Shown: positions 28,978 to 47,692 of the stretch, piece by piece
Layout: every line of letters starts with the position of its first letter
Position numbering within the stretch: position 1 is the stretch's first letter
Origin: an uncultured Lachnospiraceae bacterium
GTDB lineage: Bacteria; Bacillota; Clostridia; Christensenellales; UBA1242
NCBI GenBank assembly: GCA_964383665.1
Contig: CAYLHO010000001.1
Span: 1,638 to 65,637 of the forward strand
Reading direction: 5' to 3'
DNA: 64,000 bases
Program-made: the position numbers and the translations under genes
The notes under the pieces: generated by a model
What the model saw: the letters and a program-made list of their open reading frames with translations, nothing else
Database searches by the model: none
What the model was told of the DNA's origin: nothing

Positions 28978-30973
28978 AGTAAATTCCCGGATAAAGAATT
29001 GTGTTTGAAAGAACAAGGCTGAAATTATAATCGGTGTTTTCTGGGTCGGATTCGCTTTTAACAATGTCAAAAGCAATTTCGAAGAAAGACGTGTTGATTG
29101 TTCTTTCGTCAATAACTGTTGTTCCGCCAAACCCGTTTTCCGATTCAACAACTTTATAGAAATCTTGAATTGCGCTGCAATCTGGATTTGAAAGCTGCGT
29201 TTCGTTGGTCACGTTGTTAAGAAGGTCTTTGTTTTTAAAGAAACCAACGGTGTAGTAAGAGGCGGTGTAGCCGGTTGAATCGGTTTCTTCAACAACAAGC
29301 GATGGATCAAGTTTTGAAACGTCAACTCCAAAATCAAAATCGTTTTCATAACAGGTTTTTCCGTCGGCGTTAACATAACTTTCGGCATCTTCGAAATTGA
29401 TTTCATCGGCTTTAAATTCATAGAAGTATCTTGTTCTGGTTGATTCGTTATAACAGCAGTAGCGAACGGTTGGAATAATTCGAAGGTCTTTGTTTTGGCT
29501 CATAAAGTTGAAAACAAAGCCTACTTCAAGTTTAAGTCCGTTTTCTTTTGTTGTTTCATCAGAAATTGCAGGAACAATAACAATTGATTGATATTCGGCA
29601 TATGGCTTTCCAACAAATTGGTCGGTTGCCTCGGAATCGCCGAAGAACGATTCCCCTGGGAAATATTTAACATATGTTGCTGGCTTGGATTTATATGAAC
29701 CCGAACCAACTTCTGTAACCTTTATGGTGCCGTCTTCATCGGTTGTTTCGCCGTTTAAAAGGTTGTTTTCAACTGCTTTTTCTTGGTCTTCTTTTTTGAA
29801 TTTGTATGAAATCTTTGTTCCATTTGAATTAAATTCATATTCCCAAATGTCGCCGCTTCCGTCGTAGGTTTGCGAATAAACAAGATAGGCAATTGTTGAA
29901 ACATAATCTCGGAAGTTAACAGGCTGACCTTTAAAATTGTTATAGTCATAAACAACAAGTTTGGCGCCAATGATTTCATTCAAGATATAGTTGATAAGTT
30001 TGTCTGCATTTTGCTTTGTTAAGCCGGTGTAGCGCGCTTTTGAAAGATATTCTTTCATAAGCCCGCCTGTTGGATTGGTTTCCGTCCCGCCTTCGCCATA
30101 GAGATAGGCATTAAGTTTTGCCAATGCCAGGTCTTGCCCGTCGTTATCGATTTTTGCACTTGTAGTAGAATTGTTTGATTGAAAATTCCAATCAATAGTT
30201 AAACCAACAAGGTCCGATTCCGACGATGATTTAACTTTTACGGAATATAATGTTCCAATAGCTGAAGAGGTTATCTCGGAAGCCTCAGGAGGGGGATTTG
30301 TGCTTGAATTAACAACAACTTCCAAAGTTGTTAAGTTTTCATACCCAAGCATGATTTCATAAAGAACGATTTGAAGAATGCTGGAGTAATAGTTGGGGAA
30401 TTGATATGTATCGGGATCTGAAATTGCATTTGAGAAATCGGTCGCCCAATTTCCATAATTCGAATTATCCAAAGAGCAATCTTCACTTTCTGGATTGAAA
30501 TTTTTTAACTTTATGTCTGTTGCGTTTGGATCTATTGTCCATTTCCAGTGTTTTGTTAAATCCGCTTTTGCATTTCCGTTTATGTTTCCGTTTTCAGCCG
30601 TAACAAGCATTCTTATGCTGTCGTAGAAAGGCGCTTTTAAGGAATAAAGATATTTTGACATTGCTCCACTTCCATAGTTCACCAAAAGTGAAGCTCTTAA
30701 GAGTTGAAGCATTTTGTTTGTTTGGTCTTGGCTGCTTGCAAGCCCACTATATTCTCCATTTTCTTTGTTTGCATAAACAGCGGCAATTCCAGATACATAA
30801 TTTTCAAAAAAAGTTTCGGGAAGGGTTGTTCCGCCTTCGCCGCCAATTCCGCCCCCTTGCGAATCAACTTCACACCCCGCAAAAAGAAAGCCCGAAAAAG
30901 CAAACAAAACGGCAAGGCATAAAGCAAGAATTGTTCTTAATTTTTTATTAAGTTTTTTTGCGTTTGTTTTCAT
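28976..30973 (-). CDS. large lipoprotein, unknown function
   Basis: Signal peptide with LFAGC lipobox, Gly-rich linker, 665 aa, no recognised catalytic motif. Confidence 0.75.
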   Translation of the reverse strand: MKTNAKKLNKKLRTILALCLAVLFAFSGFLFAGCEVDSQGGGIGGEGGTTLPETFFENYVSGIAAVYANKENGEYSGLASSQDQTNKMLQLLRASLLVNYGSGAMSKYLYSLKAPFYDSIRMLVTAENGNINGNAKADLTKHWKWTIDPNATDIKLKNFNPESEDCSLDNSNYGNWATDFSNAISDPDTYQFPNYYSSILQIVLYEIMLGYENLTTLEVVVNSSTNPPPEASEITSSAIGTLYSVKVKSSSESDLVGLTIDWNFQSNNSTTSAKIDNDGQDLALAKLNAYLYGEGGTETNPTGGLMKEYLSKARYTGLTKQNADKLINYILNEIIGAKLVVYDYNNFKGQPVNFRDYVSTIAYLVYSQTYDGSGDIWEYEFNSNGTKISYKFKKEDQEKAVENNLLNGETTDEDGTIKVTEVGSGSYKSKPATYVKYFPGESFFGDSEATDQFVGKPYAEYQSIVIVPAISDETTKENGLKLEVGFVFNFMSQNKDLRIIPTVRYCCYNESTRTRYFYEFKADEINFEDAESYVNADGKTCYENDFDFGVDVSKLDPSLVVEETDSTGYTASYYTVGFFKNKDLLNNVTNETQLSNPDCSAIQDFYKVVESENGFGGTTVIDERTINTSFFEIAFDIVKSESDPENTDYNFSLVLSNTILYPGIY

Positions 30974-31132: not shown

Positions 31133-32155
31133 TTAAATTGAAAAACCGCGATAGTCCGCTTTTCCGTTCCCTTGAACAACGCGGAAGGTTTTTGTTTTTT
31201 GTTTTTCTTTTTTGCCTTTTGAAGCTTTTGCTTCGGTTTCAAAAACTGGGAATGTTATGTCGAAAATTGCAAGATTATTTTCTGCCGAGGCTTCTGCTGT
31301 TGATTGAGTTACAAACTCTTTAAAGTTTTCTTCATTTGTTATGCTTATTGTATTTGTTTTGCTGTTAAGCATGTAGTTTGCATGATCTTCTTGAGAGCCA
31401 AATGAACTGGTTATTGCCTTAACATTGTATATTTTATCATTTTTAATTAGTGTTAAATTTGTTTCATTTCTCGCTTGTTCATTAGAATTGAAGGCTGTTG
31501 CATTTAAGATTTCAGCGCCTTCAAGCCCAACCTCGCTTAAAATGTAAGTTGTAAGTTTGTTATATAGTTCTTCGGAGATTTTGCCCTTTAATATTGTTTG
31601 AGTTTCCAAATTTGTGTTTATGGGAGAAATCTCATTTAAAACTTCAACGGCTTCTTGATAGGTTGTTTGCGTAAAAGGCTTTCCAAGATAAAGGATGTAG
31701 AAGTATTTTTTTGTTGAGTCTATTTTTCTATCCGCTGTTAAATAAACAGTTCCGTCGAGTTCATTGATTTTAACAATTTTAACATTTCCAAATGTTGCGC
31801 GTTTGCTTGTTGATTGCAATTTTTCAAGAGCAATTTGTTGAATTCTCTCCTCGCATTCCTTCATATAGTCAAGTTCGGTTTTTTCGTCTGGTTTTGGAGG
31901 AGTTGGAGTTGGAGTTGGAGTTGGAGTTGGAGTTGGAGTTGGAGTTGGAGTTGGATCTGGGTTTGGGTTTGGGCTTGGGCTTGGATCTGGGTTTGGGTTT
32001 GGGCTTGGGTCTGGCGTTACAACAGTTGTTCCGGAATTTGGATTTTGAACTTGTTGGTTATTTTTTGTGACAGCGAAATATATTCCCACTGCCGCGCCAG
32101 CCATAACGCAGAATGTTGAAATTGTTGCAAGAATTTTTTTTGTTGAGTCTTTCAT
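31133..32155 (-). CDS. membrane-anchored protein with Pro-rich (PNPNPDPSPS / (TP)9) linker and an unknown C-terminal domain
   Basis: N-terminal TM helix ILATISTFCVMAGAAVGIYFAV, low-complexity Pro linker, and a globular domain of about 250 aa. Confidence 0.75.
   Translation of the reverse strand: MKDSTKKILATISTFCVMAGAAVGIYFAVTKNNQQVQNPNSGTTVVTPDPSPNPNPDPSPSPNPNPDPTPTPTPTPTPTPTPTPTPPKPDEKTELDYMKECEERIQQIALEKLQSTSKRATFGNVKIVKINELDGTVYLTADRKIDSTKKYFYILYLGKPFTQTTYQEAVEVLNEISPINTNLETQTILKGKISEELYNKLTTYILSEVGLEGAEILNATAFNSNEQARNETNLTLIKNDKIYNVKAITSSFGSQEDHANYMLNSKTNTISITNEENFKEFVTQSTAEASAENNLAIFDITFPVFETEAKASKGKKEKQKTKTFRVVQGNGKADYRGFSI
31899..31952. repeat. hexanucleotide microsatellite (GGAGTT)9 inside the 31133-32155 CDS, followed by a 30-bp GGATCTGGGTTTGGGTTTGGGCTTGGGCTT duplication
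   Basis: Nine perfect tandem copies were counted. They encode (TP)9 on the minus strand. Confidence 0.9.
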
Positions 32156-32510: not shown

Positions 32511-35500
32511 TTGTCAATGTTTTTTTGGACTTTTATTAAAAATATGTTAATATTCTCATATATGAACGCAACGGCAATTGTTGGGAACAATTTAAGCGAA
32601 GTTTCGAAAGCGGTTATTTCGCAAATTGAAATTTCAAGTTCGCTTGAACTTGAAAACTTTGTTGTTGTTCCTGACAGATTTTCGCTTCTTGCCGAAAAGC
32701 TTGTTTTTGAGCAACTTGGAATTTCATCAACGTTTAACATTAAGGTTCTTGGAATTTCTCGGCTTGCTTCAATTTTTTTTCAAGAGGAAAAAATTCTTTC
32801 TCAAAATGAAAGCAGACTTAAAATTTTTCAAATCCTCAAGGAAAACGATTTTGAATTTTTTAAACCAAATTTTGACCTTGCAACCGAGCTTTTCAACATT
32901 ATTTCGCAAATTAAATCAAGCAAAGTTTCGCTTTTGGAGCTTGAGAAAAGTTGCAAAACGCAAAAGCAAAAAGAAATTGCTCGCGTTTTTTCAATTTATG
33001 AAGCAACCAAAAATTTCCCTGATCAAAGCGATTTAATTTCAAATCTTTCAAGCAATTTAAAGAAGGAAAAACTTGAAAATCTTTCCTTCTTCTTTGTTGG
33101 ATTCGACAGTTTAACTTCGCAAGGGGAATTGCTTTTGGAAAAGCTTATTCTTTTTTCGAAGAGAATTGTTGTTGGGGCAACGCTTCCTTCTTCTCAAAAG
33201 AACTCACAGGTTTATGACAGCGACATTTTTAACAAACTTAACAGCATTTCAAGACGAAACAAAATTAAAATTGAAAAGATATATTTAACGGAAAAGGAAA
33301 ATTCTCTTTCAAGACATATTTTGGAAAATCTTTTTTCGTTTTCACCAAAAGTTATTGAAACAACAAAAGTTCATCTTTTGGAGTTTGAAACTCCAGAAAA
33401 TGAGATTCGAGAAATTGCAAAAACAATTTTGTTTTATGTTAAAAACAAAAATAAAAGATTTTCGTCGCTTAACGTTCTTTCTGGAAGTTTGGAAACAACA
33501 GCAAAAATTTTTGAGCGGGTTTTTGAGGAATATGGGATTTCATATTTTCTTGACACTTCTCAAAAAATTTCAAATCTTCCAATCCACACTTTTTTCTTCA
33601 CGCTTTTTTCTTATCTCCAAACGAAAAGCGAGGAATGCTTTTTTAACCTTATTTTAAATCCATATTGCGATGTTCCTCAAAATCAAATTTCCGATTTTAA
33701 AAATATTATTTTATTAAATGGTCAGTTTTGCGAGGAACTTGCAAATAATTTTGAAAATATTAAAGAAATTATTGAAAAAATTAATTATTTTAATAAAAAA
33801 ATTGAAAAAATTAATAATTTTTCAGGCTTTTCCAATTTAATTAACGAAATTGTTTTGGAATTTAATTTAAAAGAACGTAATGAGCAATTGATTAATCATT
33901 TTTCAAACGTAAATTTAAAAAGTGAAAAAATTTATGTTCAAATTTTTAAAAAGCTTGAAAACGTTTTAAATGAACTTGATTCAACGGCTGAAGTTGATTT
34001 TGAAACATATTCCACATTGTTCCTTTCAATTTTTGGAGAAAAAGAAATTTCGGCAGTTCCAATTTCAACCGATTGTGTTTTTGTTGGAAGCGAAAAGTCT
34101 TTCTTTGAAAGTCGAGATGTTATGTTTGTTTCTGGCGCAACGTCCGGAACAATTCCGCTTGTTTCAAAAGACCTTGGGCTATTTTCCGATTCCGACATTG
34201 AACAAATCAACTTGGGAATTGAGCCAACAATTCAAATGATTAACAAGCGAAACAAGCAAAAGCTTTTGTTTGATCTTTGTCCAAAAGAAGAACTTTTTGT
34301 TTCAACTTCGGGAAGTGCTCTTGGCGAGAAACTTGAGAAATCGGTTATATTTTCTGAACTTCAAAAGATTTTTACTTTTGAAAATTCGCCATTAAAAATT
34401 TTCAATAATTTCTTTGCACAATTTTTGCCAAGCAAGGAGTTCTCGCTTTTTGAAATCCAAAGTGGAAGAGATTTTGAACAAAAGATTCTTAAATTAAAAC
34501 AACAAAAAAAGATTTCAGATGAAAAATTTAATTTGATTTTGGGAAGTAGAAAGAATCAGGAAGAAAAAATTTCGTGTGCGGAAGAACTTTACAAAAATTT
34601 TTCGCCAACAGGAATTGAACGGTTCTTTTCATGCCCGTTTAAACATTTTTTTACGCACGGTTTGAAACTTAAAGAAAATCCGAAAAATGTTTTTAATGCG
34701 CGTGACGATGGAAATTATTTCCATATTGCGGCTCAAAACTTTGTTTCGCGCAATCTGGAAAAAATTGGAAATCTTTCGGAACGAGAAATTCAAGATGAAC
34801 TTGAAAAAATTGATTTAATAATTAAAAATCAGCCGCGTTTCGCTTTGCTTTCAAAAAATATTAAAAACAAACATATTTTTGAAATTCTTAAAAAAGAAAC
34901 CAAAATGCTTTTCGAAAGCATAAATTTTGAACGCAAATTCTCAAATTTTGTTGCGAAATTTATGGAACAGAGCTTTGAACTTGATTTGGGGAAAAAGAAA
35001 CTTTTTGGAATTGTTGACAGAGTTGATTTTTTTGACAACTATTTTCGAGTTGTTGACTATAAGAGCGGGGAAGTTCCAAAAAGTTTGAGAGCAATTTATA
35101 ACGGAGTTGAACTTCAACTTTTTATTTACCTGATTGCAATGCAGAATAAGTTTGGGAAAGACCCATGCGCTGGGGTTTATCTTCCAATTGGGGGAGATTT
35201 CTCAAAAAATAAGAAAAAATTTCGTTTCGAAGGATTTATTCTTGGCGAGCAAGGAATTTTAAAGGCTTTCGACAGGCAACTTGGAGATAAAAAAGAGAGC
35301 AACATTGTTTCAATTAAGTTAGCGGCAAAATCTTCGCCAGCAAATCTTGTTCTTTCAACTTCAAAGAATGTTTTTTCGGGCGAGGGATTTGAGGCTGTTA
35401 TTGAGTATGTTAAACTTTTACTATTAAGCGCGGAAAAGGAAATTTTAAGCGGAAAGATTCCAGCAATTCCAATTGAGGGATTCATTTGCAAGAACTGTCA

Positions 35501-35615
35501 ATTTTTTGGAATTTGCTCATTTAAACAAGATGAGCGCGAGGAGCAAAGAGAAAACGGAAAACAACTTTCGCAAACGGATTTTATTTCAATTTGCGAAAGA
35601 CAAAAGCCGAACTAA
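32511..35615 (+). CDS. addB: helicase-nuclease subunit AddB (start uncertain, 32511-32562)
   Basis: Position upstream of addA. C-terminal RecB-type nuclease with iron-sulfur cysteines (FSCPFKHF ... VDYKSG ... CKNCQFFGIC). The N-terminal Walker A position reads GNNLSEVS, which is degenerate. Confidence 0.85.
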   Translation: MSMFFWTFIKNMLIFSYMNATAIVGNNLSEVSKAVISQIEISSSLELENFVVVPDRFSLLAEKLVFEQLGISSTFNIKVLGISRLASIFFQEEKILSQNESRLKIFQILKENDFEFFKPNFDLATELFNIISQIKSSKVSLLELEKSCKTQKQKEIARVFSIYEATKNFPDQSDLISNLSSNLKKEKLENLSFFFVGFDSLTSQGELLLEKLILFSKRIVVGATLPSSQKNSQVYDSDIFNKLNSISRRNKIKIEKIYLTEKENSLSRHILENLFSFSPKVIETTKVHLLEFETPENEIREIAKTILFYVKNKNKRFSSLNVLSGSLETTAKIFERVFEEYGISYFLDTSQKISNLPIHTFFFTLFSYLQTKSEECFFNLILNPYCDVPQNQISDFKNIILLNGQFCEELANNFENIKEIIEKINYFNKKIEKINNFSGFSNLINEIVLEFNLKERNEQLINHFSNVNLKSEKIYVQIFKKLENVLNELDSTAEVDFETYSTLFLSIFGEKEISAVPISTDCVFVGSEKSFFESRDVMFVSGATSGTIPLVSKDLGLFSDSDIEQINLGIEPTIQMINKRNKQKLLFDLCPKEELFVSTSGSALGEKLEKSVIFSELQKIFTFENSPLKIFNNFFAQFLPSKEFSLFEIQSGRDFEQKILKLKQQKKISDEKFNLILGSRKNQEEKISCAEELYKNFSPTGIERFFSCPFKHFFTHGLKLKENPKNVFNARDDGNYFHIAAQNFVSRNLEKIGNLSEREIQDELEKIDLIIKNQPRFALLSKNIKNKHIFEILKKETKMLFESINFERKFSNFVAKFMEQSFELDLGKKKLFGIVDRVDFFDNYFRVVDYKSGEVPKSLRAIYNGVELQLFIYLIAMQNKFGKDPCAGVYLPIGGDFSKNKKKFRFEGFILGEQGILKAFDRQLGDKKESNIVSIKLAAKSSPANLVLSTSKNVFSGEGFEAVIEYVKLLLLSAEKEILSGKIPAIPIEGFICKNCQFFGICSFKQDEREEQRENGKQLSQTDFISICERQKPN

Positions 35616-35628
35616 CAAGGAAAATTTT

Positions 35629-38600
35629 ATGGAAAGGAAAAAGATTGAGGAACAAGAAAGAGTTTTAGAAATCAATGGCGAAAGCGCAATTGTTTCGGCT
35701 TCGGCGGGAAGCGGGAAAACAACAATTATGATTGAAAAAATTCTTCAATATCTTATGAAAGGCGTTAAGGTTAAAAATATTTTAGCGCTTACTTTCACCA
35801 ATCAAGCTGCTTCGCAAATGAAGCAAAAACTTTCTTTAAATCTTGGGAAACTTGTTGAAACAACAAATCGAATTGAGCTTGCAAGCGAAATTGATTTTCT
35901 TCCTCAAGCCGACATTTCAACCTTCCATTCGTTCTATGAAAAAATTGTTAAAAAATATTTTTATGTGATTGGAATTCAGCCAAGTTTTGAAATCCTTTCC
36001 AATGAGAAACTTCTTTCTCTTAAAGATGAAGCATTTTTGCAAGCTGTTGAAAATTTGAAAACCAACTCATTTGAAAAATATATTGAACTTTGCGATGTTC
36101 TTGGAAAAAAAAGAAGCGACAAGGCAATTAAAGAAAGAATTTTCAAAATTGATAATTTTCTTTCGTCGCAATATCAGCCAGAAGAATGGATTAAAAATTT
36201 TTCGATGAGATTGTTTGAAAACAAAGAAAAAACTTTGCAAATGTTTTTTGATGAAGTTTTTGACAATGCTCGTAATTTGAAGCAAAAACTTTGTTGTCTT
36301 CTTGAAAAAGCAAGCGGATTTAATGAGGACGGGCTTTGCGAACATATTAACTTATGCATTTTAAATATTGATGAAATTTTAGGGTTAAAAGAAAAAGAAC
36401 TTTATGAAAAAATTAAAGGGGATTTTTCTTTTCCAAAACTTATTAAATCGAAAAAGACTCTAGAAACTGAAACCTTTTTGGAAGTTAAAAGAGTAAAAGA
36501 GGAGTTTTCCGATTTTATTAAGAAATTTAGGGAATATGACTTTGGAACTTATGAAAACATTGAGCACTCGTTTGAAAGTTGTAAGGGGAACATTTCGGAA
36601 CTTGTTTCGCTTTATTTAGATTTCAAAAGCATTTTAAACAGCAAAAAATTTGAAATCAATTGCTATGATTTTTCCGATCTTGAAACTTTTTGTGCGAAAA
36701 TTTTAGATAATGAGCAGATTTGCGAAGAGATTAAAAATTCTTATGAACAAATTTTTGTTGATGAATTTCAAGATATCAATCCAATGCAATATGAAATCTT
36801 AAAAAAGATTGCAAAAAATAACGTTCTTTATGTTGGAGATGCGAAACAAAGTATTTATGCTTTCCGACAATCCGATGTTGAAATTTTTGTTGATGTTTGC
36901 AAAGATTTTGAAGGAGAAGGAGAAAAACATTCTCTTCCGCTTAATTGCAACTTTAGAACAAATAAAAAAATTCTTGATTTTGTTAACGATGTTTTCAAGG
37001 TTTTGATGACTGAAAAAAGTTGCGGAATCAACTATGAAGAAAGGGCAATGTTCAAAGGTGAAAGTGAAAACTCGTGTGAAGGGGAAAGCGTTAAGATAAT
37101 TAAAATTGCCAAAGAGGAAAAAGAAAAAGAAGAAGCGCTACAAGAAGTTTTTGAAGTTCTTAAAGCGAAAAGGAACTTTAAGGATTACAGCCTTGAAGCG
37201 AAAACAATTTTAAGAGAAATTAATAACATCATAAATCAAAAAGTTGTTTTGGACGAACAGGAAAGGAGAATAAATTTTGGCGACATTGCAATTCTTGTTA
37301 AAAACCGTTCAAGCCTTTTAAAAGATTTGGTTGCCCTTTTTGTTGAGAATAATGTTCCTTTTGTTGTTAATGATGAGTTCGACTTGCTTTCATCGAAAGA
37401 GGTTTGTCTTTCAATTTTAATTTTAAGTTTGTGCTTAAATCAAAAAGATGATTTCGCTTTGGCGGCGGTAATGGCATCGGCGTTGGGGAAATTTTCTTAT
37501 GACGATCTTGCGCAAATTAGATTAAACGGGCAAGGTGAATTTTTCTTTGAAAAAGTTAGTGATTATGCAGAAAGGAACAGCGATTTAATTTCGCAAAAAA
37601 TTTTAAAGTTTAATTCGTTGATTAGCGTTTTGCGTTTTGAAATTCAAACAATTGGAGCAAGCGCTGCTCTTGAAAAACTTTTCATTAAGGAAAACTTTTT
37701 CGAGTTTGTTTTGGGGCAAAATGGCGGGCAACTTCGCCTTGAACGTTTAAAACAATTTTTGGCGCATATTGAACAAACAGGGCTTGATTTTGACCTTTTT
37801 AATTTGGTTGAATATCTTAAAAACATTAAGGAACTTAAAACTGCAAGCGTTAAGAAGTGCGACGATAATTCTATTTTAATAACAACAATCCATGCAAGCA
37901 AAGGACTTGAATTTCCGGTTGTTATTTTAGGGGAATGCGGGAAAGATTTAACAAGGGCAAAGCCAGAAACCGATGACCTTAAAATTGATAAGAATTTGGG
38001 GATCGCACTTAACAATTATTCCAGAGCGGAAAGAAGGGTTTATGATTCAATTTTCAAGAGAATTATTGAAATTAATTCCAAGAAAAAAGAAATTGCGGAA
38101 AATTTACGTTTGCTTTATGTTGCCTTAACACGTGCGCAAAACAAACTTATCATAACAGGCGAAGTTCCAAAGGCAATTGATGAAATAACAAAAGAAAGCA
38201 ATTTGCTTCTTGTTAAGCCTTCATATTTGAACTATATTTTGGGTGCTATTGGGAAAAGCGAAGTTCAAATTGAAGAAGTTTCAAACGTGGAGGTTAACGA
38301 GTTTAAAATTGAAGAAGAAAACATTGAACCGCTTTTATCTGCAAAAGAAAACATTGATTTTGTTTATCCAAATTTGAATGCAACAAAGCTTGCTCTTAAA
38401 ACCTCGGTTAGTGAAATTGCTTTTGACGAAAATTCCTATCAAAGCGAAAATTTAAATCCAAACCGATTTTATGTTAGCGAACATCTTTCTTCGGCTTCAA
38501 CGCCAGAGGAGGGAACTCGAGTTCATGAAATTTTGGAAAAGGTTGATTTTTCAAGTTGCAATTTGGAAAGAGAAATAAAAAGTTTTAATTGCAGCGAAAG

Positions 38601-38955
38601 CCTTGCTGACACAATTATTAAAAACATTGAATTAATTAAGCAAGTAATCCCGAACCCAAGTTGCATTTTCAAGGAAAAGCAATTTATGATTTATGCAAGC
38701 CCTAAAGAGATTTTTGGAGAGGGTGAGGAGGAAAAAATTTTAATTCAAGGGAAGTTCGACTTGATTTCTGTTGGCGAAAAGGTTGTTTTAATTGACTATA
38801 AATACACCTCAATTTCAAACGAAAGTGTCCTTAAAGACAGATATCGAAAGCAGCTTTTAACCTATGCTTTTGCTGTTGAGAAAGCAATTAACAAACCGGT
38901 TGACGAAATATATTTGTTGAGTTTAAAGAATGCGAAATTAATTAGAATTAATTAA
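35629..38955 (+). CDS. addA: ATP-dependent helicase/nuclease subunit AddA
   Basis: The start is moved to MERKKIEEQ (ATG 35629). UvrD/SF1 motifs ASAGSGKTT, FVDEFQDINPMQ, TIHASKGLEFP and YVALTRAQ. C-terminal nuclease GKFDLI...LIDYKYT. Confidence 0.93.
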   Translation: MERKKIEEQERVLEINGESAIVSASAGSGKTTIMIEKILQYLMKGVKVKNILALTFTNQAASQMKQKLSLNLGKLVETTNRIELASEIDFLPQADISTFHSFYEKIVKKYFYVIGIQPSFEILSNEKLLSLKDEAFLQAVENLKTNSFEKYIELCDVLGKKRSDKAIKERIFKIDNFLSSQYQPEEWIKNFSMRLFENKEKTLQMFFDEVFDNARNLKQKLCCLLEKASGFNEDGLCEHINLCILNIDEILGLKEKELYEKIKGDFSFPKLIKSKKTLETETFLEVKRVKEEFSDFIKKFREYDFGTYENIEHSFESCKGNISELVSLYLDFKSILNSKKFEINCYDFSDLETFCAKILDNEQICEEIKNSYEQIFVDEFQDINPMQYEILKKIAKNNVLYVGDAKQSIYAFRQSDVEIFVDVCKDFEGEGEKHSLPLNCNFRTNKKILDFVNDVFKVLMTEKSCGINYEERAMFKGESENSCEGESVKIIKIAKEEKEKEEALQEVFEVLKAKRNFKDYSLEAKTILREINNIINQKVVLDEQERRINFGDIAILVKNRSSLLKDLVALFVENNVPFVVNDEFDLLSSKEVCLSILILSLCLNQKDDFALAAVMASALGKFSYDDLAQIRLNGQGEFFFEKVSDYAERNSDLISQKILKFNSLISVLRFEIQTIGASAALEKLFIKENFFEFVLGQNGGQLRLERLKQFLAHIEQTGLDFDLFNLVEYLKNIKELKTASVKKCDDNSILITTIHASKGLEFPVVILGECGKDLTRAKPETDDLKIDKNLGIALNNYSRAERRVYDSIFKRIIEINSKKKEIAENLRLLYVALTRAQNKLIITGEVPKAIDEITKESNLLLVKPSYLNYILGAIGKSEVQIEEVSNVEVNEFKIEEENIEPLLSAKENIDFVYPNLNATKLALKTSVSEIAFDENSYQSENLNPNRFYVSEHLSSASTPEEGTRVHEILEKVDFSSCNLEREIKSFNCSESLADTIIKNIELIKQVIPNPSCIFKEKQFMIYASPKEIFGEGEEEKILIQGKFDLISVGEKVVLIDYKYTSISNESVLKDRYRKQLLTYAFAVEKAINKPVDEIYLLSLKNAKLIRIN

Positions 38956-39060
38956 ATCAAAAAAATATTGAAAAATTATTAAAAAATATTGAAAAAATAT
39001 TAGTTAATAATTTTTTTATGTGTTATACTAACAACGAAATTTAACTTGGAGGTTAAACAA

Positions 39061-41715
39061 ATGAAATTATTAAACATTGATATTTTTCAAAGTGTAATAA
39101 ATTTCTTCGAAACAATTAAAACCAATTTTTCGCTTGAATATTTATTATACATATTTATTGGGCTCGAAATTTTAACTATCATTGTTTTTTCAATCATTGC
39201 ACACAACGTTTATGAGATGCGTTTAACTCGTGCGATTGACAAAATTAATGCATATTTATATGACGTCCAGTATATTAACGAGAGCAACTTAATTGAGTTT
39301 AACAACATGATGAAAAGAGTTCCAAAAACTCTTCGATATCACTGGCAACAATACATGCTTAACAGAGATAAAGCGCCAAGTGAATATATGTCGGTTGTTA
39401 ACTGCATCGACAGACCTCTTAAAAGCAGTTCACTTTCGGCAAACATTAAAGTTGCAAAAACATTGAGTTATATCTATGCAGTTCTTTCGCTTATTTTCTC
39501 ATGCGGAATTGCTTCAAGTCAAACCGATATTGGTGCTGGAGTTTATATCATTATTTTTGCAATCCCAGCAATGGTTTTGCTTTTGAACTATATTTTCACA
39601 ATTGCATTGGACATTAGAAAAGCAAGCAACACGAACGAACTTTACCAAACGTTCCATATTTTCAACAGATTTATTGATAAGGCAGTTTCAACAATGCCAA
39701 GTTATGTTGATTTTGAAGTTTTGTTTACAGCAAAAGAAATCAAACGCGGAATTCCAGTTTTGAACGAGTACATTGAAAAACGTCAACTTCAAGAACAAGA
39801 AGAAATGAAGAAGGCAAGAGAGAATGCAATTCAGCATGAACTTTATAATTTTGAAGAAGCGGGCGAAAAAGGTGAACTTGTTTTGGAACGCGCAATGAAA
39901 GAAACGGAAATCTTTGTTAACATGCGTAACCGCTTGAACACAGAAATTGACCAGTTCGACAAAGAAATGGACAGTCTTAAACGTAGTTTTGAAAACACAA
40001 CAAAAGACTATCAAAAGAAACTTCAAGCAAGCAAAGAAAACACAGACCGACTTAGAGAACAACAAGAAGCAACAACGAATCGTGTTGAAAGCAACTACAT
40101 AAGAAAACAACAAGCTGACGAAATTAAAAAGCAACAACAAATTGAGAAAGATCAAGAAGACGCTCAACTTAGATTTAATCAAGAAATCAACAATTTGGCA
40201 GCAGAAATTAAGAAAAGAAAAGAAGAGCTTGAGGAAGCAAGGCTTAATGTTGAAAAATCCATGCTTGCCGAGTACAAAACCTTCTCTAACAAAATTTACG
40301 CTGAAATTCGTGAGAACGTTAACGAACATGTTAAAGAGGAAAGAGAAGAACTTATTGGCTCAAGAGAAGAAGTTGCTCGTGAACTTGAAAAGGCCATGAC
40401 AAAAATTGATACTCTTGAAATCCAAAATAAAGTTTTGGTTAACAAAGCGGCAGAGCGTGAAGCATATGTTAAGGCAAGCGTTGAGAAAGAAAAACGTGAG
40501 CTTCAAGCAAGACTTAATGAAAAGCAAGAACAACTTGAAGAAAAGGAGAAACAAATTCAACTTATTTCTTCAAATTACATTTTAAATGAAAATCAACCTA
40601 AACCTTCGAAAAAAGAATCGAAGGCTGCAGCAAAAGTTGCAACAGAAGAGGTTTTTGAGAAGATCGAAATTGAAGAGCCAAAACCAGACCAATTTGGCGG
40701 GCAATTCGATGAAAACGGGAACTACACGTATCCATCTGGAGCATATTACGATGCTCAAGGAAATCTTCATGAGAACGGCAAAGTTTATGACAAAGACGGA
40801 ATTTTGATTGAGGATAACTCTCAAGAAGAAGCAAAACAAGAAAAAGAGACTGAAGTCGAGGTTGTTGAAGAAGCAGCAAACGAAGTTGTTGAAGCAACTC
40901 AAGAGATTGAAGAAGCAGCAAACGAAGTTGTTGAAGCAACTCAAGAGATTGAAGAAGCTCACGAAGTTTCTCAAGAAATTGATGGTTTCGATGCATTTGC
41001 AAATGAAGTTTCCCAAGATGAAATTGCTCCAGAAGAAAACGTGATTGTTGAAGAGAGTGAGAGCGTTGAGGAACTTCCAACAGATGAGCAGCCTCAAGAA
41101 GCGGTTGCTGAACCTGAGGAAATTTCCGAAGAAGTTGAAGAGAAACCAGAAGCAAAGAAGCGCGGTCGCCCAAGAAAAGAAAAACCAGAAGAAGAACCTA
41201 AACCAGCGGGAAAACGCGGTCGCCCAAGAAAAGTTGTTAGCGAGGAAGAAAAACCAGAAGCAAAGAAGCGCGGACGCCCAAGAAAGGAAACTGTTGAGGC
41301 TGAAGAATCAAAAGCGGAAGAGCCTGCAAAGAAACGTGGCCGTCCAAGAAAAGAAACTTCCGATGAAGAAACTGTTAAGCCAGCAGGAAAACGTGGCCGC
41401 CCAAGAAAGGAAACAGTCGAGGCTAAAGAACTTAAAGCGGAAGAACCTGTAAAGAAGCGTGGTCGCCCAAGAAAAGAAACTTCCGAAGAGGAAACTGTTA
41501 AACCGGCAGGAAAACGCGGACGTCCAAGAAAAGAGACTCAAACCCATGAAGAAGCGCCAAATGCAGAACCAAAGAAGCGTGGCCGCCCTAAAAAACTTAA
41601 TATCGACGAGAACTTGAAACTTATTGAGGAAAGACTTAAAGAACAAAACAGACTTCTTAAAGAACAACAAAAAGCTCTCGACAAAACAGTTAATGGGGTT
41701 AATTCAAGAAAATAG
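39061..41715 (+). CDS. polytopic-membrane-anchored coiled-coil protein with eight C-terminal AT-hook (RGRP) motifs
   Basis: GGAGG RBS before ATG 39061. Three hydrophobic segments in the first ~190 aa, a long E/K/Q-rich heptad region, an acidic repeat, then 8 copies of (K/G)KRGRP(R/K)K. Confidence 0.85.
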   Translation: MKLLNIDIFQSVINFFETIKTNFSLEYLLYIFIGLEILTIIVFSIIAHNVYEMRLTRAIDKINAYLYDVQYINESNLIEFNNMMKRVPKTLRYHWQQYMLNRDKAPSEYMSVVNCIDRPLKSSSLSANIKVAKTLSYIYAVLSLIFSCGIASSQTDIGAGVYIIIFAIPAMVLLLNYIFTIALDIRKASNTNELYQTFHIFNRFIDKAVSTMPSYVDFEVLFTAKEIKRGIPVLNEYIEKRQLQEQEEMKKARENAIQHELYNFEEAGEKGELVLERAMKETEIFVNMRNRLNTEIDQFDKEMDSLKRSFENTTKDYQKKLQASKENTDRLREQQEATTNRVESNYIRKQQADEIKKQQQIEKDQEDAQLRFNQEINNLAAEIKKRKEELEEARLNVEKSMLAEYKTFSNKIYAEIRENVNEHVKEEREELIGSREEVARELEKAMTKIDTLEIQNKVLVNKAAEREAYVKASVEKEKRELQARLNEKQEQLEEKEKQIQLISSNYILNENQPKPSKKESKAAAKVATEEVFEKIEIEEPKPDQFGGQFDENGNYTYPSGAYYDAQGNLHENGKVYDKDGILIEDNSQEEAKQEKETEVEVVEEAANEVVEATQEIEEAANEVVEATQEIEEAHEVSQEIDGFDAFANEVSQDEIAPEENVIVEESESVEELPTDEQPQEAVAEPEEISEEVEEKPEAKKRGRPRKEKPEEEPKPAGKRGRPRKVVSEEEKPEAKKRGRPRKETVEAEESKAEEPAKKRGRPRKETSDEETVKPAGKRGRPRKETVEAKELKAEEPVKKRGRPRKETSEEETVKPAGKRGRPRKETQTHEEAPNAEPKKRGRPKKLNIDENLKLIEERLKEQNRLLKEQQKALDKTVNGVNSRK
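40867..40950 (+). repeat. perfect 42-bp tandem duplication (EEAANEVVEATQEI x2) within the CDS
   Basis: GAAGAAGCAGCAAACGAAGTTGTTGAAGCAACTCAAGAGATT occurs twice head-to-tail, with a partial third copy starting at 40951. Confidence 0.9.
41155..41594 (+). repeat. in-frame AT-hook repeat array with a higher-order ~123-bp unit
   Basis: Eight AAG/GGA-AAR-CGY-GGN-CGY-CCW-ARA-AAR cores with a period of 18-22 codons. The unit GKRGRPRKETVEA.E.KAEEP.KKRGRPRKETS.EETVKPA is repeated twice nearly identically. Confidence 0.9.
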
Positions 41716-41835
41716 TAAAAATAAAAAAATCACTTCAGTTTTTGGGGTGATTTTTTATATGAAGTAAAATTTTTATTCATGAATTAAAACGAAAAGTTTT
41801 GTCATATAATAAATTTGTGTTATTATTTTAAGGAA

Positions 41836-42729
41836 ATGATGAAAAAGTTTTTTGTATTTATATTAATAGGATTATTTGGGTTAACACTTGCGGGCTGCAC
41901 ATCGGCAGTTACGCTTTCTGGAATTAACACAAACATTTCGTCATACTATTTTGTTGCTGATTTTTCAAGTGGATATGGAATGCTTAATGAAAGCGAAAAG
42001 GCGATTTTGGAAAATAAAGTTAATTCGCTTGCAAGCGATTATGTTGACGACCTTATTTTAAGATATTACGCAGCACTTAATTTGTTTGAGGAAAACGGAA
42101 AGATTTCGGCAAATGAAAAAATTGTTTACAGGAATCATTTAACTTGTTCAACTTCTTGGGAAAACGGAATGTTTTCAATTCAACTTGATTTCTATTCAAA
42201 AGAATCGTCAAGGATTTTCATTTTAAGTTCGGATTATGCAGGCATAACAAACGAAGAAACAACTTTTAAAACCGTTTCAACCGAAAAATTTTCAGGTGTG
42301 TTCTCGAAAACAAAAAATAATTTGATTTCAACAAGTCTTGAAGATTATTTCCTTTCTGGGGCTAAGGCGGCGCTTTCAACTCTTGGAGGAGATTCTGCCC
42401 AAAAAATTAACACAACTGAATTCTATTATATGTTTGTAACTGAAAATGTTAAATTGAGAGCAAAAGATGCAAACGAAACGCTTGAGCTTTCGGGCGGAAC
42501 AATTTATTGTTACTATTCAAACAGCGATTTTTCAGAACTTGAATTTGAGTTTTACATTGTTCAAGCAAATCGTCTTGTTTACTATTTAATTTGTCTTGCA
42601 ATTTCATTCACGTTTGTTGCAATTTACCTTATGGTTATTTACTTTAAAAAACCTAAAAGCAAACAAACTGAGCAAAAAGAACAAGACGAAACAACAAAAA
42701 TTGAAATTCCAACAAATGGCGAAGGTTAA
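41836..42729 (+). CDS. lipoprotein with an additional C-terminal TM helix, unknown function
   Basis: MMKKFFVFILIGLFGLTLAGC lipobox. C-terminal LVYYLICLAISFTFVAIYLMVIYF followed by a charged tail. Confidence 0.7.
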   Translation: MMKKFFVFILIGLFGLTLAGCTSAVTLSGINTNISSYYFVADFSSGYGMLNESEKAILENKVNSLASDYVDDLILRYYAALNLFEENGKISANEKIVYRNHLTCSTSWENGMFSIQLDFYSKESSRIFILSSDYAGITNEETTFKTVSTEKFSGVFSKTKNNLISTSLEDYFLSGAKAALSTLGGDSAQKINTTEFYYMFVTENVKLRAKDANETLELSGGTIYCYYSNSDFSELEFEFYIVQANRLVYYLICLAISFTFVAIYLMVIYFKKPKSKQTEQKEQDETTKIEIPTNGEG

Positions 42730-42769: not shown

Positions 42770-43033
42770 GTGATTGACGGAAAACAAAAGCGTAAATTTA
42801 AGAAAGATGTTAAGCGAAGAATGATTGAAATGTTTGCTTCAATTCCTTTTGGGGTTGGTTTTGCATTTCTTTTCTATTGGCTTAAACTTTCTGTTGGGCT
42901 TCAATTGTTTTTAACAGTTGTTTGCTGGGGTGCTGTTATTGGAATTGTTGAACTTGTTTTCTTTTTTGTTAACAGAGCAATTGAAAAACGAAATGAGTTG
43001 AAACCAAAACGTCGCGACCCATTTGCCGACTAG
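42770..43033 (+). CDS. small two-TM membrane protein, unknown function (start uncertain)
   Basis: 87-aa ORF with a basic N-terminus and two hydrophobic helices. The GTG start sits right after a TATAAT-like box, so the mRNA may be leaderless. Confidence 0.5.
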   Translation: MIDGKQKRKFKKDVKRRMIEMFASIPFGVGFAFLFYWLKLSVGLQLFLTVVCWGAVIGIVELVFFFVNRAIEKRNELKPKRRDPFAD

Positions 43034-44485: not shown

Positions 44486-44762
44486 AAGTTATTAATATAA
44501 AAGAAGAACCTTGAAGAGGGTTCTTTTTTTGTTGTTAGTTTTAAAAGGTTGAAATTTAGGCGTAAATTGGCATTATCAGCGCGAAAAAACAAGAAAAAAG
44601 TCGAATATTGTAAAAAAATAGTAAAAAGATTTTGATATTTTTACAAAAATTAGTAAAATTAATGGCAGACGTGATTGACAATGGACATTTTTGATTCTTA
44701 TAATTTTTTTGTCATTATGAAAATTAATTGGCAAATTGTATTTAATTAATAAGGGGAAATCT

Positions 44763-45329
44763 ATGGAATTAGAAGTTTGGGCAAGAACAATGTTAACGGT
44801 TCAAAGACATTTGGAAAGAGTTACAAAGGCTCTTGATAAAATCATTTTAAAGAAGGCTGTTTCATCGGCTTTTGTTACATCTAAGAACTTAATGGAGCAA
44901 AGCGTTGAAAAGATTAGCAAATACATAATTAACCTTTCGCAAAGCAAGATTAACCTTATTAACTTAAACACAATTTGTGTTAACTCGCTTAAAGGGATTG
45001 ACAAAACTTCTGCGAAAATTTTGATTTTAAAGCATATCGACGGCAAGCAGAGCAACGAAATTGCGTCGCTTTTGGGTCTTAGCAACAGAACGTATTTCAG
45101 GCGTCTTAATTTGGCTTATGAGAAAATTGTTGGTTGGCTTTTGGCAAATCACTATGATGCGGAATTTTTTGCGAAAAACTATTTTTCTGAAGGCTGGATT
45201 ATGGAAGTTTATAATAAAAATCTTGAAGTTGTTTCAAGCAGCAAACAAAGCGATGTTTGCATTGATGTTGGGCTTTTGAAGGGGATTGTTTCGTCAATTG
45301 CAAAAGCGGCTCATTCGTCATACTCATAA
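44763..45329 (+). CDS. sigma-70 region-4-type HTH protein (divergent small sigma or phage late-regulator-like)
   Basis: AKILILKHIDGKQSNEIASLLGLSNRTYFRRLNLAYEKI matches the sigma r4 / LuxR-like HTH pattern. No clear region 2. AAGGGGA RBS before ATG 44763. Upstream TTGACA-17-TTATAAT. Confidence 0.6.
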   Translation: MELEVWARTMLTVQRHLERVTKALDKIILKKAVSSAFVTSKNLMEQSVEKISKYIINLSQSKINLINLNTICVNSLKGIDKTSAKILILKHIDGKQSNEIASLLGLSNRTYFRRLNLAYEKIVGWLLANHYDAEFFAKNYFSEGWIMEVYNKNLEVVSSSKQSDVCIDVGLLKGIVSSIAKAAHSSYS

Positions 45330-46159
45330 TAATCTTGGTGGCGAATTTTTTTGCGTTTTTTCCTAGGTTTAAGGTCGGCTTCCTCAAGTGCTTTTGCTGT
45401 TATTTTTGTTGGACGGAAAAGGAGATAGATAATAATTAAGCATGGAAGGCAAACTGCAATTATTATAACAATTTGAGTTGCGGACGGAAGAGAGCTTAAT
45501 ACGTCGTCGCTAGAGGGGGTTGCGGAAACATCAACCGTGAAATTTGGCTCGTCGATATATTCCAAAACTTCGGTGTTAGTTGGAATTTCGGTTAGGGAAT
45601 CGCAAAATGCATTGTAAACATATCCAAAATATTCTTTTCCATTTTTAATATACTTACAAAAAAACCAAGTTTGAGTTCGGTTTGAAATTGCTTCCTCGCC
45701 TTCAATTTCACCATAATATTTTAAATTGGTTTCAAGATAGCCAAGTTGTTCAATTGTGTTTATGCCTTGCGATTGGCTTGGGGAGGAGCGAAGTTCAACT
45801 CCGCCTGGAACAAAAACACGAAAAGTTGCGTTTGCAAAAGGTGTTTCGGGAACCCCGCTTACGCATTGGACTTCCGATTTTTTAACGTAGCCATAAACAT
45901 CGATGTAGCGCGCGGAAAAGAACAAATCGTTTTCGCACCTGTCGATTTGGATATAGTAACTTTGCGGAATTACGAAGTAGACATTTGAAAAGGTTTCGTC
46001 TCCGCTTGTTGAACGATAGAGTTTAACATTTTTTGAAATCGCTTTTGCAAAAAATGTTTCATTGGCGAAAACAGTTGTTATGTTTGGAAGTTGAAAAAAA
46101 CGGGGCAAAACAGCCGCAAGAATTAACAAAAAACAGAAAATATAACTCTTTTTTTGCAT
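45311..46159 (-). CDS. signal-peptide protein with two SH3b-like domains and a C-terminal TM anchor
   Basis: N-terminal hydrophobic leader. Two units of the VKLYRSTS...YGYVKKSEV / VELRSSPS...FGYVYNAF type. TM IVIIIAVCLPCLIIIYLLF plus a basic tail. Its 3' end overlaps the convergent 44763-45329 gene by 19 nt. Confidence 0.65.
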   Translation of the reverse strand: MQKKSYIFCFLLILAAVLPRFFQLPNITTVFANETFFAKAISKNVKLYRSTSGDETFSNVYFVIPQSYYIQIDRCENDLFFSARYIDVYGYVKKSEVQCVSGVPETPFANATFRVFVPGGVELRSSPSQSQGINTIEQLGYLETNLKYYGEIEGEEAISNRTQTWFFCKYIKNGKEYFGYVYNAFCDSLTEIPTNTEVLEYIDEPNFTVDVSATPSSDDVLSSLPSATQIVIIIAVCLPCLIIIYLLFRPTKITAKALEEADLKPRKKRKKIRHQDYYEYDE

Positions 46160-46234: not shown

Positions 46235-47692
46235 ATGAAAAAACAAAAAATTTATGAGTCAATTTTTGAAATTGAAAGCGAAATTGAAAGGAGAAACAAG
46301 TTTTCTGCGCTTGAAAAATATAACACGGGAGAGAAAAAGCACCTTAAACAGCTTGAGTTTCACAAATGCACAAAAAGAAACAGGTGGGTTTTTGGAGGGA
46401 ACAGAAGCGGAAAAACCGAGTGTGGGGCGGTTGAATGCGTTTGGCTTGCAAGAGGAATTCACCCTTTTCGCACTAACAAAAAAGATGTTTCAATTTGGGT
46501 TGTTTCGCTTTCGAAGCAGGTTCAAAGAGATGTTGCGCAAAGCAAAATTTTTTCCTATTTAAAACCAGAATGGATTTCGGAAATCGTTATGGAAACGGGA
46601 AGCAAGGATTTCCCGCAAAACGGTTTTGTTGACTATATTTTAATTGAAAATGTTTTTGGTGGGAAAAGTAAGATTGGGTTTAAAAGTTGCGACCAAGGAC
46701 GTGAAAAGTTTCAAGGCACGTCTCTTGACTTTGTTTGGTTTGACGAAGAGCCGCCGGAAGAAATCTATCGGGAATGCAAGATGCGTGTTATCGACCGATG
46801 CGGGGAAATTTTTGGCACGATGACGCCGCTTAAGGGGCTTACCTGGGTTTATAACGAGATTTATTTAAACGAAGGGAACGACGATGAGGTGTGGTCGATT
46901 TCTATGAACTGGGACGATAATCCATATTTGGACGTGAAGGAAATTAAGAGTCTTAAATCAAGCATGAGCGAGGAGGAACTTGAGGCAAGGTGCTATGGAA
47001 AGTTTAGGAGTTTTGGGGGACTTGTCTATCCCGAATTTGACCCGCAAATTCATGTTATTGAGCCTTTTGATGTTCCAAAAGAATGGTTCGACAAAATTTC
47101 AATTGACCCCGGGCTTAACAACCCTCTTTCTGCGCACTGGTATGCCGTTGACTTTGATGGAAATGTTTTTGTTATTGCGGAGCACTATGAGGCGAGAAGG
47201 GATATAATTTATCATGCAAATGCAATTAAGCGCATATGCGAAAATTTGAACTGGAAAACGGGGTTTGGCGGAAAGGTTGAGGCAATTATCGACAGCGCTG
47301 CAACTCAAACAACTCTTGCAAGCGAAAAAAGCGTTTGTGATTTGTTTTTTGAAAATGGGATTTTGGCAAACCCACATGTTAACAAGGACCTGTTTTCTGG
47401 GATCAACAAAGTTAAGTCGTATTTGAAAAACGCAGAGGGGAAAAGCAAACTTTTTATTTTTAAAAACTGCGAAAATTTAATTATGGAAATTAAGGGCTAT
47501 TTTTGGGCCAATGGCGACAGACCAACAAAAAAAGACGACCATTCGCTTGATGAACTTCGTTATTACATTATGTCGCGTCCAGAACCTGCGAAAGTTAAGA
47601 CAATAAAAACTGATGTTGAGAAGGACAAGGAAAGGCTTATTCGAAAACTTGACTTTTCAAGAAAAAGCTTTGGAATTAAAAAGATTAATTAA
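46235..47692 (+). CDS. phage terminase large subunit homolog (orphan)
   Basis: Walker A GGNRSGKT (46394-46417), Walker B/catalytic LDFVWFDEE (46724-46750), C-terminal RNase-H-like nuclease acidic residues in ISIDPG, IIDSAATQ and DDHSLDELRYY. Confidence 0.75.
   Translation: MKKQKIYESIFEIESEIERRNKFSALEKYNTGEKKHLKQLEFHKCTKRNRWVFGGNRSGKTECGAVECVWLARGIHPFRTNKKDVSIWVVSLSKQVQRDVAQSKIFSYLKPEWISEIVMETGSKDFPQNGFVDYILIENVFGGKSKIGFKSCDQGREKFQGTSLDFVWFDEEPPEEIYRECKMRVIDRCGEIFGTMTPLKGLTWVYNEIYLNEGNDDEVWSISMNWDDNPYLDVKEIKSLKSSMSEEELEARCYGKFRSFGGLVYPEFDPQIHVIEPFDVPKEWFDKISIDPGLNNPLSAHWYAVDFDGNVFVIAEHYEARRDIIYHANAIKRICENLNWKTGFGGKVEAIIDSAATQTTLASEKSVCDLFFENGILANPHVNKDLFSGINKVKSYLKNAEGKSKLFIFKNCENLIMEIKGYFWANGDRPTKKDDHSLDELRYYIMSRPEPAKVKTIKTDVEKDKERLIRKLDFSRKSFGIKKIN

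Follow-up and report, generated by a model that had tools for sequence, protein, structure and literature searches.

Two characterized systems come closest to the protein described here, one to its membrane half and the other to its tail. The Zorya anti-phage motor is a ZorA5B2 complex with ZorA as its MotA-like subunit; through a ~70-nm cytoplasmic tail, ZorA recruits ZorC, which binds DNA, and the nuclease ZorD, for which the tail tip is needed (PMC11946911). CarD of Myxococcus xanthus has a disordered C-terminal domain in which an acidic segment precedes RGRP repeats, and the equivalence of AT-hook and histone-H1-like tails in CarD has been documented experimentally (PMC4374960). We analyzed a gene in a 64,000-nucleotide (nt) stretch of DNA from an uncultured Lachnospiraceae bacterium (assembly GCA_964383665.1, contig CAYLHO010000001.1; called the window below, with positions given in window coordinates). 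The gene is an unbroken plus-strand open reading frame (ORF) at 39061-41715 whose 884-amino-acid (aa) product, judged from its sequence, appears to work like a ZorA-type membrane stalk combined with a CarD/HMGA-type tail. We read it as a membrane-to-DNA tether that faces the cytoplasm and is linked to AddAB, at a probability of about 0.5; that it tethers DNA to the membrane in one form or another seems fairly likely.

In other Firmicutes, DNA is coupled to the membrane by RacA, Noc, or RicO. Noc, RacA-DivIVA, RicO of Staphylococcus aureus, and Rv3852 share with the protein in the window a proposed principle, namely that one protein or complex touches both membrane and DNA. They use folded, mostly sequence-specific DNA-binding domains and reach the membrane through amphipathic helices or partners, whereas here a polytopic protein bears a long stalk and is predicted to bind DNA nonspecifically; Pfam gave no sequence or domain similarity between the two groups. 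Full-text literature searches returned no AT-hook array on a membrane protein, no ZorB-less ZorA-like protein, and no such addAB-linked gene. An original prediction made from the DNA letters had stated that multivalent hook arrays fused to a membrane anchor are not known to have been described in bacteria.

The gene family and its membrane domain

By sequence, the gene is a member of a real, conserved, and undescribed family of gut Clostridia. Peptide patterns drawn from the N-terminal 260 aa, when scanned against GTDB with each species represented by one genome, recovered 42 loci at 41-93% identity, nearly all in gut metagenome-assembled genomes labeled uncultured Firmicutes, Clostridia, Christensenellales, or Christensenella, and two loci obtained by exact look-up (L043 and L044) brought the number read to 44. 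An exhaustive HMMER search against 1.84 billion cluster representatives (50% identity) found no fewer than 317 clusters with E ≤ 1e-3, of which 151 reached E ≤ 1e-30, with a shared core running from aa 1 to ~450. Orthologs in the genome loci are 600-1070 aa long and keep the three transmembrane (TM) segments, and almost all end with 3-11 GRP cores. At present the family has no annotation, as neither Pfam nor NCBIfam has a model for the 450 conserved N-terminal aa; the N-terminal domains of 32 relatives gave only weak coiled-coil noise in Pfam. The original prediction had suggested profiling phyletic distribution and synteny; the plan of the protein is kept throughout a large clade, in close synteny with addBA.

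The layout that had been read from the translation held in most of its parts. Three hydrophobic segments do lie in the first ~190 aa (aa 25-47, 134-152, and 160-183), with Kyte-Doolittle 19-aa means that reach 2.6. The long coiled coil said to follow them is found, as a helical stalk of roughly 250-300 aa, at aa ~232-512 in the AlphaFold model, with a 3.5-residue hydrophobic periodicity over aa 262-512 (z=5.4 against shuffles), and the acidic spacer behind it carries a net charge of -44 over aa 540-700. Eight hooks at spacings of 18-22 aa are present as claimed, but they do not end the protein, since 41 aa of conserved helical sequence lie beyond the last of them.

Charge counts across the family (means over 121 members) give a consistent topology. 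The segment before TM1 has 1.4 K+R residues and a net charge of -1.0, the 15 aa after TM1 and the 15 aa before TM2 have net charges of +1.7 and +2.0, the 86-aa TM1-TM2 loop has +6.6, and the TM2-TM3 loop has 0.0 K+R residues. Because these family-wide positive-inside counts coincide with a fold class that is N-out/C-in, we predict that the N-terminus and the TM2-TM3 loop are outside and that the long loop and everything after TM3, including the tail, are cytoplasmic. The hook array would thus face the interior of the cell, the placement on which the earlier tether idea hinged.

The same counts bear on whether the product might instead be displayed on the surface or secreted, with its basic tail and YDxxGN repeats binding to the cell wall. 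These repeats loosely recall cell-wall/choline-binding and MORN-type repeats (MORN_2 E=0.66). However, the protein has no signal peptide, its C-terminus is placed inside by charge and by the N-out/C-in fold family, and a 250-aa charged helical stalk and AT-hooks are typical of cytoplasmic proteins; we regard a surface location as highly improbable. The original prediction would have yielded to an N-terminus of a known family that explains the protein, for example a secreted adhesin. Part of this applies, as the N-terminus does resemble the ZorA/TolQ/ExbB A-subunits of 5:2 motors, while no cell-wall-binding Pfam match was found.

The resemblance to ZorA emerged from both structure and sequence profiles. 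An AlphaFold run with the 121-sequence alignment had a mean predicted local distance difference test (pLDDT) score of 93 and was used for Foldseek; a single-sequence model (pLDDT 49) was not used for the fold search. Foldseek ranked ZorA chains 1 to 4 (E ~1e-2, probability 1.00, template modeling score 0.48-0.53 by target length), followed by >30 TolQ/ExbB chains (0.31-0.42 by target length). A profile of the 32 N-terminal domains searched against 177,635 distinct PDB sequences had three Escherichia coli ZorA constructs as its top hits; their E values of 0.38-0.9 are insignificant alone, and the match is collinear, with aa 15-206 aligned to ZorA 10-216. When the 121-sequence profile was aligned with the ZorA segment by hhalign, the score was 31.5 (P=4e-4), compared with at most 18.7 in 30 shuffles and 11.4 for the reversed sequence. 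This alignment pairs aa 102-151 with ZorA residues ~108-158, and its core is the best-conserved loop motif together with TM2 (R..APS.YMS..NCI..PL.SS against RATAPSASFFSEQQLVDIPLNTEFF in ZorA). Since two independent methods pick ZorA from the whole PDB, we consider remote homology of the membrane domain to ZorA, or at least a shared fold, to be credible. A Foldseek search of a viral library with the model returned generic long-helix matches, such as tape-measure proteins, at a root mean square deviation (RMSD) of >20 Å. One entry of that library stood out from the other viral hits by how well it fits the membrane domain, namely BFVD A0A221LEA0, a 256-aa viral protein (probability 1.00, template modeling score 0.59 by target, RMSD 3.8 Å over 192 columns), which, going by the models, may be a phage-encoded stator-like protein.

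In anatomy, the likeness to ZorA (type I Zorya, E. coli ZorA5B2; PDB 8qyd, 8qyh, 8qyk, and 8qyy) is at the level of fold, at ~10% identity. Both proteins have three TM helices in the same order with N-out/C-in topology and a membrane-proximal cytoplasmic domain between TM1 and TM2. In both, TM3 runs into a cytoplasmic helical tail of several hundred residues, which in ZorA has an important tip and here comprises model helices 159-211, 232-256, 269-337, and 341-459, and in both the gene neighbors are DNA-processing enzymes. They differ in that the present gene occupies a fixed core-genome position with no zorB, zorC, or zorD nearby, that no beta-hairpin is predicted, and that the tail ends in a disordered acidic block and an AT-hook module that ZorA lacks. 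With TolQ, ExbB, and MotA the protein shares the membrane-domain fold, the topology, and a near-invariant proline in the last TM helix (P169, in 115/121 sequences), whereas those proteins lack a long stalk or DNA-binding tail and the TM helices of the present family are poorly conserved. Mean top-residue frequency is 0.61 in the juxtamembrane region and 0.55 in the cytoplasmic loop but 0.33-0.37 in the TM helices (121 sequences), the least conserved parts of the family core. In the loop (aa 48-133), 11 positions are conserved at ≥90% and the motif reads NLIEFN..K..PK.LRYHWQQYML.R..PS.YMS..NCI..PL..S; in the juxtamembrane region (aa 184-260), 12 positions reach that level and the motif reads LYQ.FHIF.R.IDKA..T.P.YVDFE.LFT.KEI..GIPVLNEY.EKR.

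Membership in the stator families was assessed from partner genes, ion-filter residues, and domain models. A B-subunit is a single-TM protein with a conserved aspartate and, in ZorB, a peptidoglycan-binding domain, and is normally encoded adjacent to its A-subunit. No adjacent B-subunit gene (ZorB, MotB, TolR, or ExbD) was seen among the downstream genes of 40 loci, nor did Pfam find a MotB, OmpA, or ExbD domain in the window and nine other loci; the downstream genes scanned encode phosphoglycerate mutase, transposase, methyltransferases, nucleoside phosphorylase, and proteins without a family match. TM2 has a small or polar face (T/S136, A140, S/T143, and S/G/N147 across 121 sequences), and in the HMMER and hhalign alignments the ZorA ion-filter residue Thr147 pairs with A140, which is Ala in 71/121 sequences and Ser in 17/121. 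The alignment of TM3, which covers the position of ZorA Ser184, is unreliable. PADLOC-DB returned no ZorA or other defense model for the protein and no ZorA for the 32 N-terminal domains, and Pfam MotA_ExbB (PF01618) matched neither the protein (E ≤ 1) nor the 32 relatives (E ≤ 10). Given the lack of an adjacent partner gene, the Ala that Thr147 pairs with, and the absence of matches to PADLOC and Pfam models, we reject the protein as a member of Zorya. Membership in the MotA/TolQ/ExbB family was likewise rejected, as the defining tests failed.

AT-hooks, basic tails, and the stalk

An RGRP core with basic flanks defines the AT-hook, which binds the minor groove of AT DNA and is best known from eukaryotic HMGA proteins. 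The tail has eight such cores at aa 701-843, spaced by 18, 18, 22, 19, 22, 19, and 21 aa, although the composition of the protein predicts only 0.004 and none of 20,000 shuffles contained more than 2. All eight copies have the G-R-P core, the preceding R, and basic residues on either side. By the Pfam threshold they are bona fide AT-hook motifs: AT_hook (PF02178), the only Pfam match in the protein, scores 42.6 bits against a gathering cutoff of 17.4 (E=2.4e-11). At the DNA level, the array consists of tandem repeats of 123 bp (2.7 copies of a two-hook unit) and 54 bp (2.9 copies). Relatives keep the hooks as regular arrays of 2-11, and the 574 hooks pooled from 93 proteins with at least two hooks have the consensus P-K-(K/R/G)-K-R-G-R-P-(R/K)-K at a median spacing of 19 aa (interquartile range, 18-20).

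GRP is nonetheless absent from ~60% of the representative clusters. Most hook-less clusters have an acidic block followed by a strongly basic low-complexity stretch, PAKK/AKKP or S/T-K in type, whose best net charge per 40 aa has a median of +9.5, and two of these tails match the histone-H1-like Pfam family HC2 at E=5e-6 and 9e-5, both below the Pfam cutoff. Since hook-less relatives mostly carry H1-like lysine-rich tails, the conserved property, on sequence grounds, is a polycationic disordered tail behind an acidic one, in which the type of basic repeat is interchangeable. H1-like tails are classic DNA binders, and their presence in hook-less relatives strengthens the sequence-based case for a tail that binds polyanions or DNA. 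The family would represent a natural case of the AT-hook/H1-like tail replacement shown experimentally for CarD. Like CarD and HMGA, the protein has a disordered acidic segment (net charge -44) followed by RGRP hooks, here at a net charge of +19 over aa 700-850. CarD, however, carries four hooks on a soluble RNA-polymerase-binding domain, while the present protein has eight on a membrane-anchored stalk and an extra terminal helix. A CarD_CdnL_TRCF domain was not found in it, and membership in the CarD family was rejected.

The interchangeability of hooks and K-rich repeats, the segregation of acidic and basic blocks, and a conserved stalk and tip that suggest protein partners would also suit a scaffold, in which the charge-blocked tail binds RNA, polyphosphate, or anionic lipids, or self-associates as a membrane condensate, and the hooks are merely a convenient basic repeat. 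Yet the strict G-R-P core, the R at -1, the K at +4, and the regular spacing exceed mere basicity and match the minor-groove motif, and the H1-like alternative in relatives points to DNA as well. We therefore consider such a scaffold improbable.

Between the membrane and the hooks lie several conserved modules. AlphaFold predicts helices 232-256, 269-337, and 341-459 at high confidence, the last two at pLDDT 85-97, and within the stalk, residues 300-360 show more conservation than is usual in a coiled coil. Behind the stalk, almost all orthologs carry 1-4 YDxxGN repeats in an equivalent position; these matched no Pfam family, even in relatives with 8-11 copies. A terminal motif related to the segment after the last hook is present in hook-less relatives too. 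We regard the conserved aa 300-360 of the stalk, the YDxxGN repeats, and the helix at the tail tip as probable sites of partner binding. Within the acidic block, 42 bp are perfectly duplicated in tandem (2.2 copies, 100% match by Tandem Repeats Finder) and encode EEAANEVVEATQEI twice, which suggests that this low-complexity tail has recently undergone slippage or recombination.

Linkage to addBA and the proposed tether

The gene lies directly downstream of addA, in the same orientation, in 39 of the 42 loci with upstream sequence. This linkage persists where AddA is only ~30% identical to that of the window, and addA is also upstream in the distant hook-less relatives L043 and L044 (hook-less relatives are at ~35% identity). 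On the 3' side, there are at least 12 different contexts, some with an insertion sequence (IS) element or a restriction-modification methylase. Because the downstream genes differ between lineages, addB-addA-target is the conserved block. The original prediction had placed the gene between addBA and dnaB; addA is indeed immediately upstream, but two small genes intervene before dnaB, and this arrangement, a lipoprotein-like gene, a small membrane protein gene, and dnaB, is confined to the close relatives L001-L013. Since the gene has been kept directly after addB-addA across deep divergence, we expect the DNA that it handles to be most likely AddAB linked.

We propose that a membrane base, composed of the three-helix domain and its membrane-proximal cytoplasmic domain in the ZorA/TolQ/ExbB fold, would carry a stalk of ~250-280 residues that projects into the cytoplasm and would measure ~35-40 nm if fully extended. 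The hooks may attach to AT-rich duplex in its minor groove in a multivalent manner with little sequence specificity, and DNA would thereby be held near the membrane, at a reach set by the stalk and the flexible tail. DNA and the acidic block are probably in competition for the hooks, which would tune binding, and if the protein forms a pentamer like ZorA, each complex would present 40 hooks. The DNA handled may be tied to the processing of double-strand ends by AddAB, for example, broken or replicating chromosomal DNA, or linear DNA, kept near the membrane within reach of AddAB.

If this is true, it would mark the first time that a ZorA/ExbB-type membrane module has been found joined to a DNA-binding tail and functioning with no B-subunit; no earlier bacterial protein would have a large AT-hook array on its membrane anchor. 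The protein would offer a candidate for DNA-membrane coupling in abundant uncultured gut Clostridia (Christensenellales and relatives), and AddAB end processing may be spatially organized at the membrane. The functional idea of the original prediction, chromosome-to-membrane tethering, is plausible and has been somewhat strengthened by the predicted cytoplasmic tail and the H1-like interchange; it has also been refined by the ZorA-like anchor, the addBA linkage, and the additional conserved modules.

Several observations weigh against this reading. DNA binding by the hooks is deduced from motifs and from the precedent of CarD and HMGA, and the C-terminal half of the protein has an acidic net charge as a whole, a possible limit on DNA binding. 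The likeness to ZorA is remote, at ~10% identity and a Foldseek E value of ~1e-2, with no stator match in PADLOC or Pfam. Loci L018-L020 do not have addA upstream, and their upstream genes are divergently oriented. A promoter of the gene's own, with possible read-through, is likely, because the addA-target gap is 65-320 nt long across loci (median 142) and very AT rich (5-29% GC). Each target gene has its own ribosome-binding site, with a GGAGG- or GGGG-type purine-rich box 5' of the start in nearly all orthologs. In the window, the addA-target spacer showed no terminator-like hairpin, and a promoter scan of it returned no more sites than in shuffles. Public RNA data include four short gut metatranscriptome contigs that lie inside the gene at ≥99% identity, none of which crosses the addA junction. 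Given the probable own promoter, the three unlinked loci, and the RNA contigs, adjacency to addA could be inherited gene order without a functional link.

These points would fit a general chromosome-to-membrane tether that serves nucleoid organization, segregation, or forespore capture, has no tie to AddAB, and sits after addA by inheritance. Such a tether accounts for the same anatomy, and membrane-DNA tethers such as RicO are known in Firmicutes. The window is rich in chromosome-maintenance genes (SMC, RmuC, and DnaB), with smc near the target, and YabP/YabQ genes adjoin the target gene in L044. The window also encodes SpoIIGA and a sigma-E-like factor, which supports the earlier description of the lineage as sporulation capable. 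However, the addA junction survives at ~30% AddA identity while the junction on the downstream side has undergone at least 12 breaks, so inertia alone is hard to credit, and the protein has no sequence-specific DNA-binding domain to mark an origin region. We consider a tether without any AddAB tie possible, if rather unlikely.

The addAB neighborhood also raises the possibility of a Zorya-like anti-phage device, in which the stalk senses envelope perturbation, the hooks catch incoming AT-rich linear DNA, and AddAB acts in place of ZorC and ZorD. ZorA is the best structural and sequence match, the long cytoplasmic tail has a conserved tip, as in ZorA (PMC11946911), and the tail carries a predicted DNA-binding module next to a conserved helicase-nuclease neighbor. 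Against this, no ZorB-, MotB-, or ExbD-like gene lies beside the target in any of the 44 loci, Thr147 pairs with a conserved Ala, the TM helices are the least conserved part, and no PADLOC model matches. Moreover, throughout an order-level clade the gene keeps one site among housekeeping genes, in contrast to mobile defense islands, and the neighboring addBA has the canonical domains of AddAB, with no second copy seen within the stretches examined. An anti-phage device of this kind is doubtful. We give a similarly low likelihood to a ZorB-less descendant or cousin of ZorA that acts as a core-genome device, perhaps pentameric, and seizes broken or entering linear DNA near the membrane for AddAB. 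If that were true, Zorya-type envelope-coupled immunity and RecBCD/AddAB-type end processing would be connected in single-membrane bacteria. The AddAB-linked tether remains the reading that we favor.

Feature coordinates and neighboring genes

Coordinates of the gene, its parts, and its surroundings are collected in Table 1.

Table 1. Positions of the target gene, its parts, and neighboring features in the window
Feature	Position	Strand	Basis or remarks
SMC gene	21841-25437		Chromosome/sporulation cluster
RmuC gene	25473-26681	-	Chromosome/sporulation cluster
SpoIIGA gene	27344-28210		Chromosome/sporulation cluster
Sigma-E-like factor gene	28207-28950		Chromosome/sporulation cluster
Gene for 665-aa protein	28976-30973	-	One N-terminal TM
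Gene for 340-aa protein	31133-32155	-	One N-terminal TM; just 5' of addB
addB, upstream neighbor	32511-35615	+	Pfam ADDB_N, PDDEXK_1; syntenic in related loci
addA, immediately upstream	35629-38955	+	Pfam UvrD-helicase, UvrD_C, PDDEXK_1; start is first ATG after addB stop
addA-target spacer, 105 nt	38956-39060	+	Sequence; 15% GC
Ribosome-binding site GGAGG	39048-39052	+	Read from sequence; 8 nt 5' of ATG
Whole gene (884-aa membrane protein, helical stalk, AT-hook tail)	39061-41715	+	Intact ORF; orthologs in 44 loci
N-terminal segment, aa 1-24, predicted extracellular	39061-39132	+	Family mean K+R 1.4, net -1.0; model helix 5-22
TM1, aa 25-47	39133-39201	+	Hydropathy; model helix 25-48
Membrane-proximal cytoplasmic loop, aa 48-133, conserved	39202-39459	+	Family net +6.6; hhalign to ZorA
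TM2 (aa 134-152) and TM3 (aa 160-183), hairpin with short outer loop	39460-39609	+	Hydropathy; model helices 124-151, 159-211
Juxtamembrane cytoplasmic region, aa 184-260	39610-39840	+	Best-conserved region of family
Helical stalk, coiled-coil-like, aa 261-512	39841-40596	+	AlphaFold helices; heptad power
Three (Y/F)DxxG(N/I) repeats, 14-aa period, aa 546-585	40696-40815	+	Between stalk and acidic block
Acidic disordered block, aa 586-697	40816-41151	+	Charge count
42-bp tandem duplication in acidic block	40865-40958		Tandem Repeats Finder
Eight AT-hooks, (K/G)KRGRP(R/K)K, with E/P/T/K linkers, aa 698-846	41152-41598	+	Motif read; Pfam AT_hook
Conserved C-terminal helical segment, aa 847-884 (NIDENLKLIEERLKEQNRLLKEQQKALDKTV...)	41599-41712	+	Kept directly after last hook in orthologs
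Gene for 304-aa protein	41815-42729	+	Lipoprotein-like N-terminus, C-terminal TM helix
Gene for 87-aa basic membrane protein	42770-43033	+	
Extracytoplasmic function (ECF)-like sigma gene	44736-45329	+	5' of terminase-like gene
Membrane-protein gene	45311-46159	-	5' of terminase-like gene
Terminase-large-subunit-like gene	46235-47692	+	Terminase_6N E=7.7e-15, Terminase_6C E=1.6e-5

The two small genes directly downstream encode proteins that are 25-69% (304-aa protein) and 51-83% (87-aa protein) identical in close relatives; neither product received an identity from Pfam or PADLOC. On the opposite strand just 5' of addB, the 665- and 340-aa proteins have no Pfam family, and the latter is recognizable in L001 and L002 only. 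In two other loci, an IS element (transposase helix-turn-helix and rve integrase; L021, 8372-9543) or an Eco57I/N6-type DNA methylase gene (L040, 11434-12819) lies directly 3' of the target, and these insertions make the target 3' end a recurrent synteny break or insertion point.

The terminase-like gene in the window stands alone among the housekeeping genes dnaB, an ABC ATPase gene, and the RNase J gene, with no adjacent phage genes. Since its gene order is kept in L001-L013 and its product, TerL, is 72-91% identical among them, it evolves like a core gene rather than a prophage remnant.

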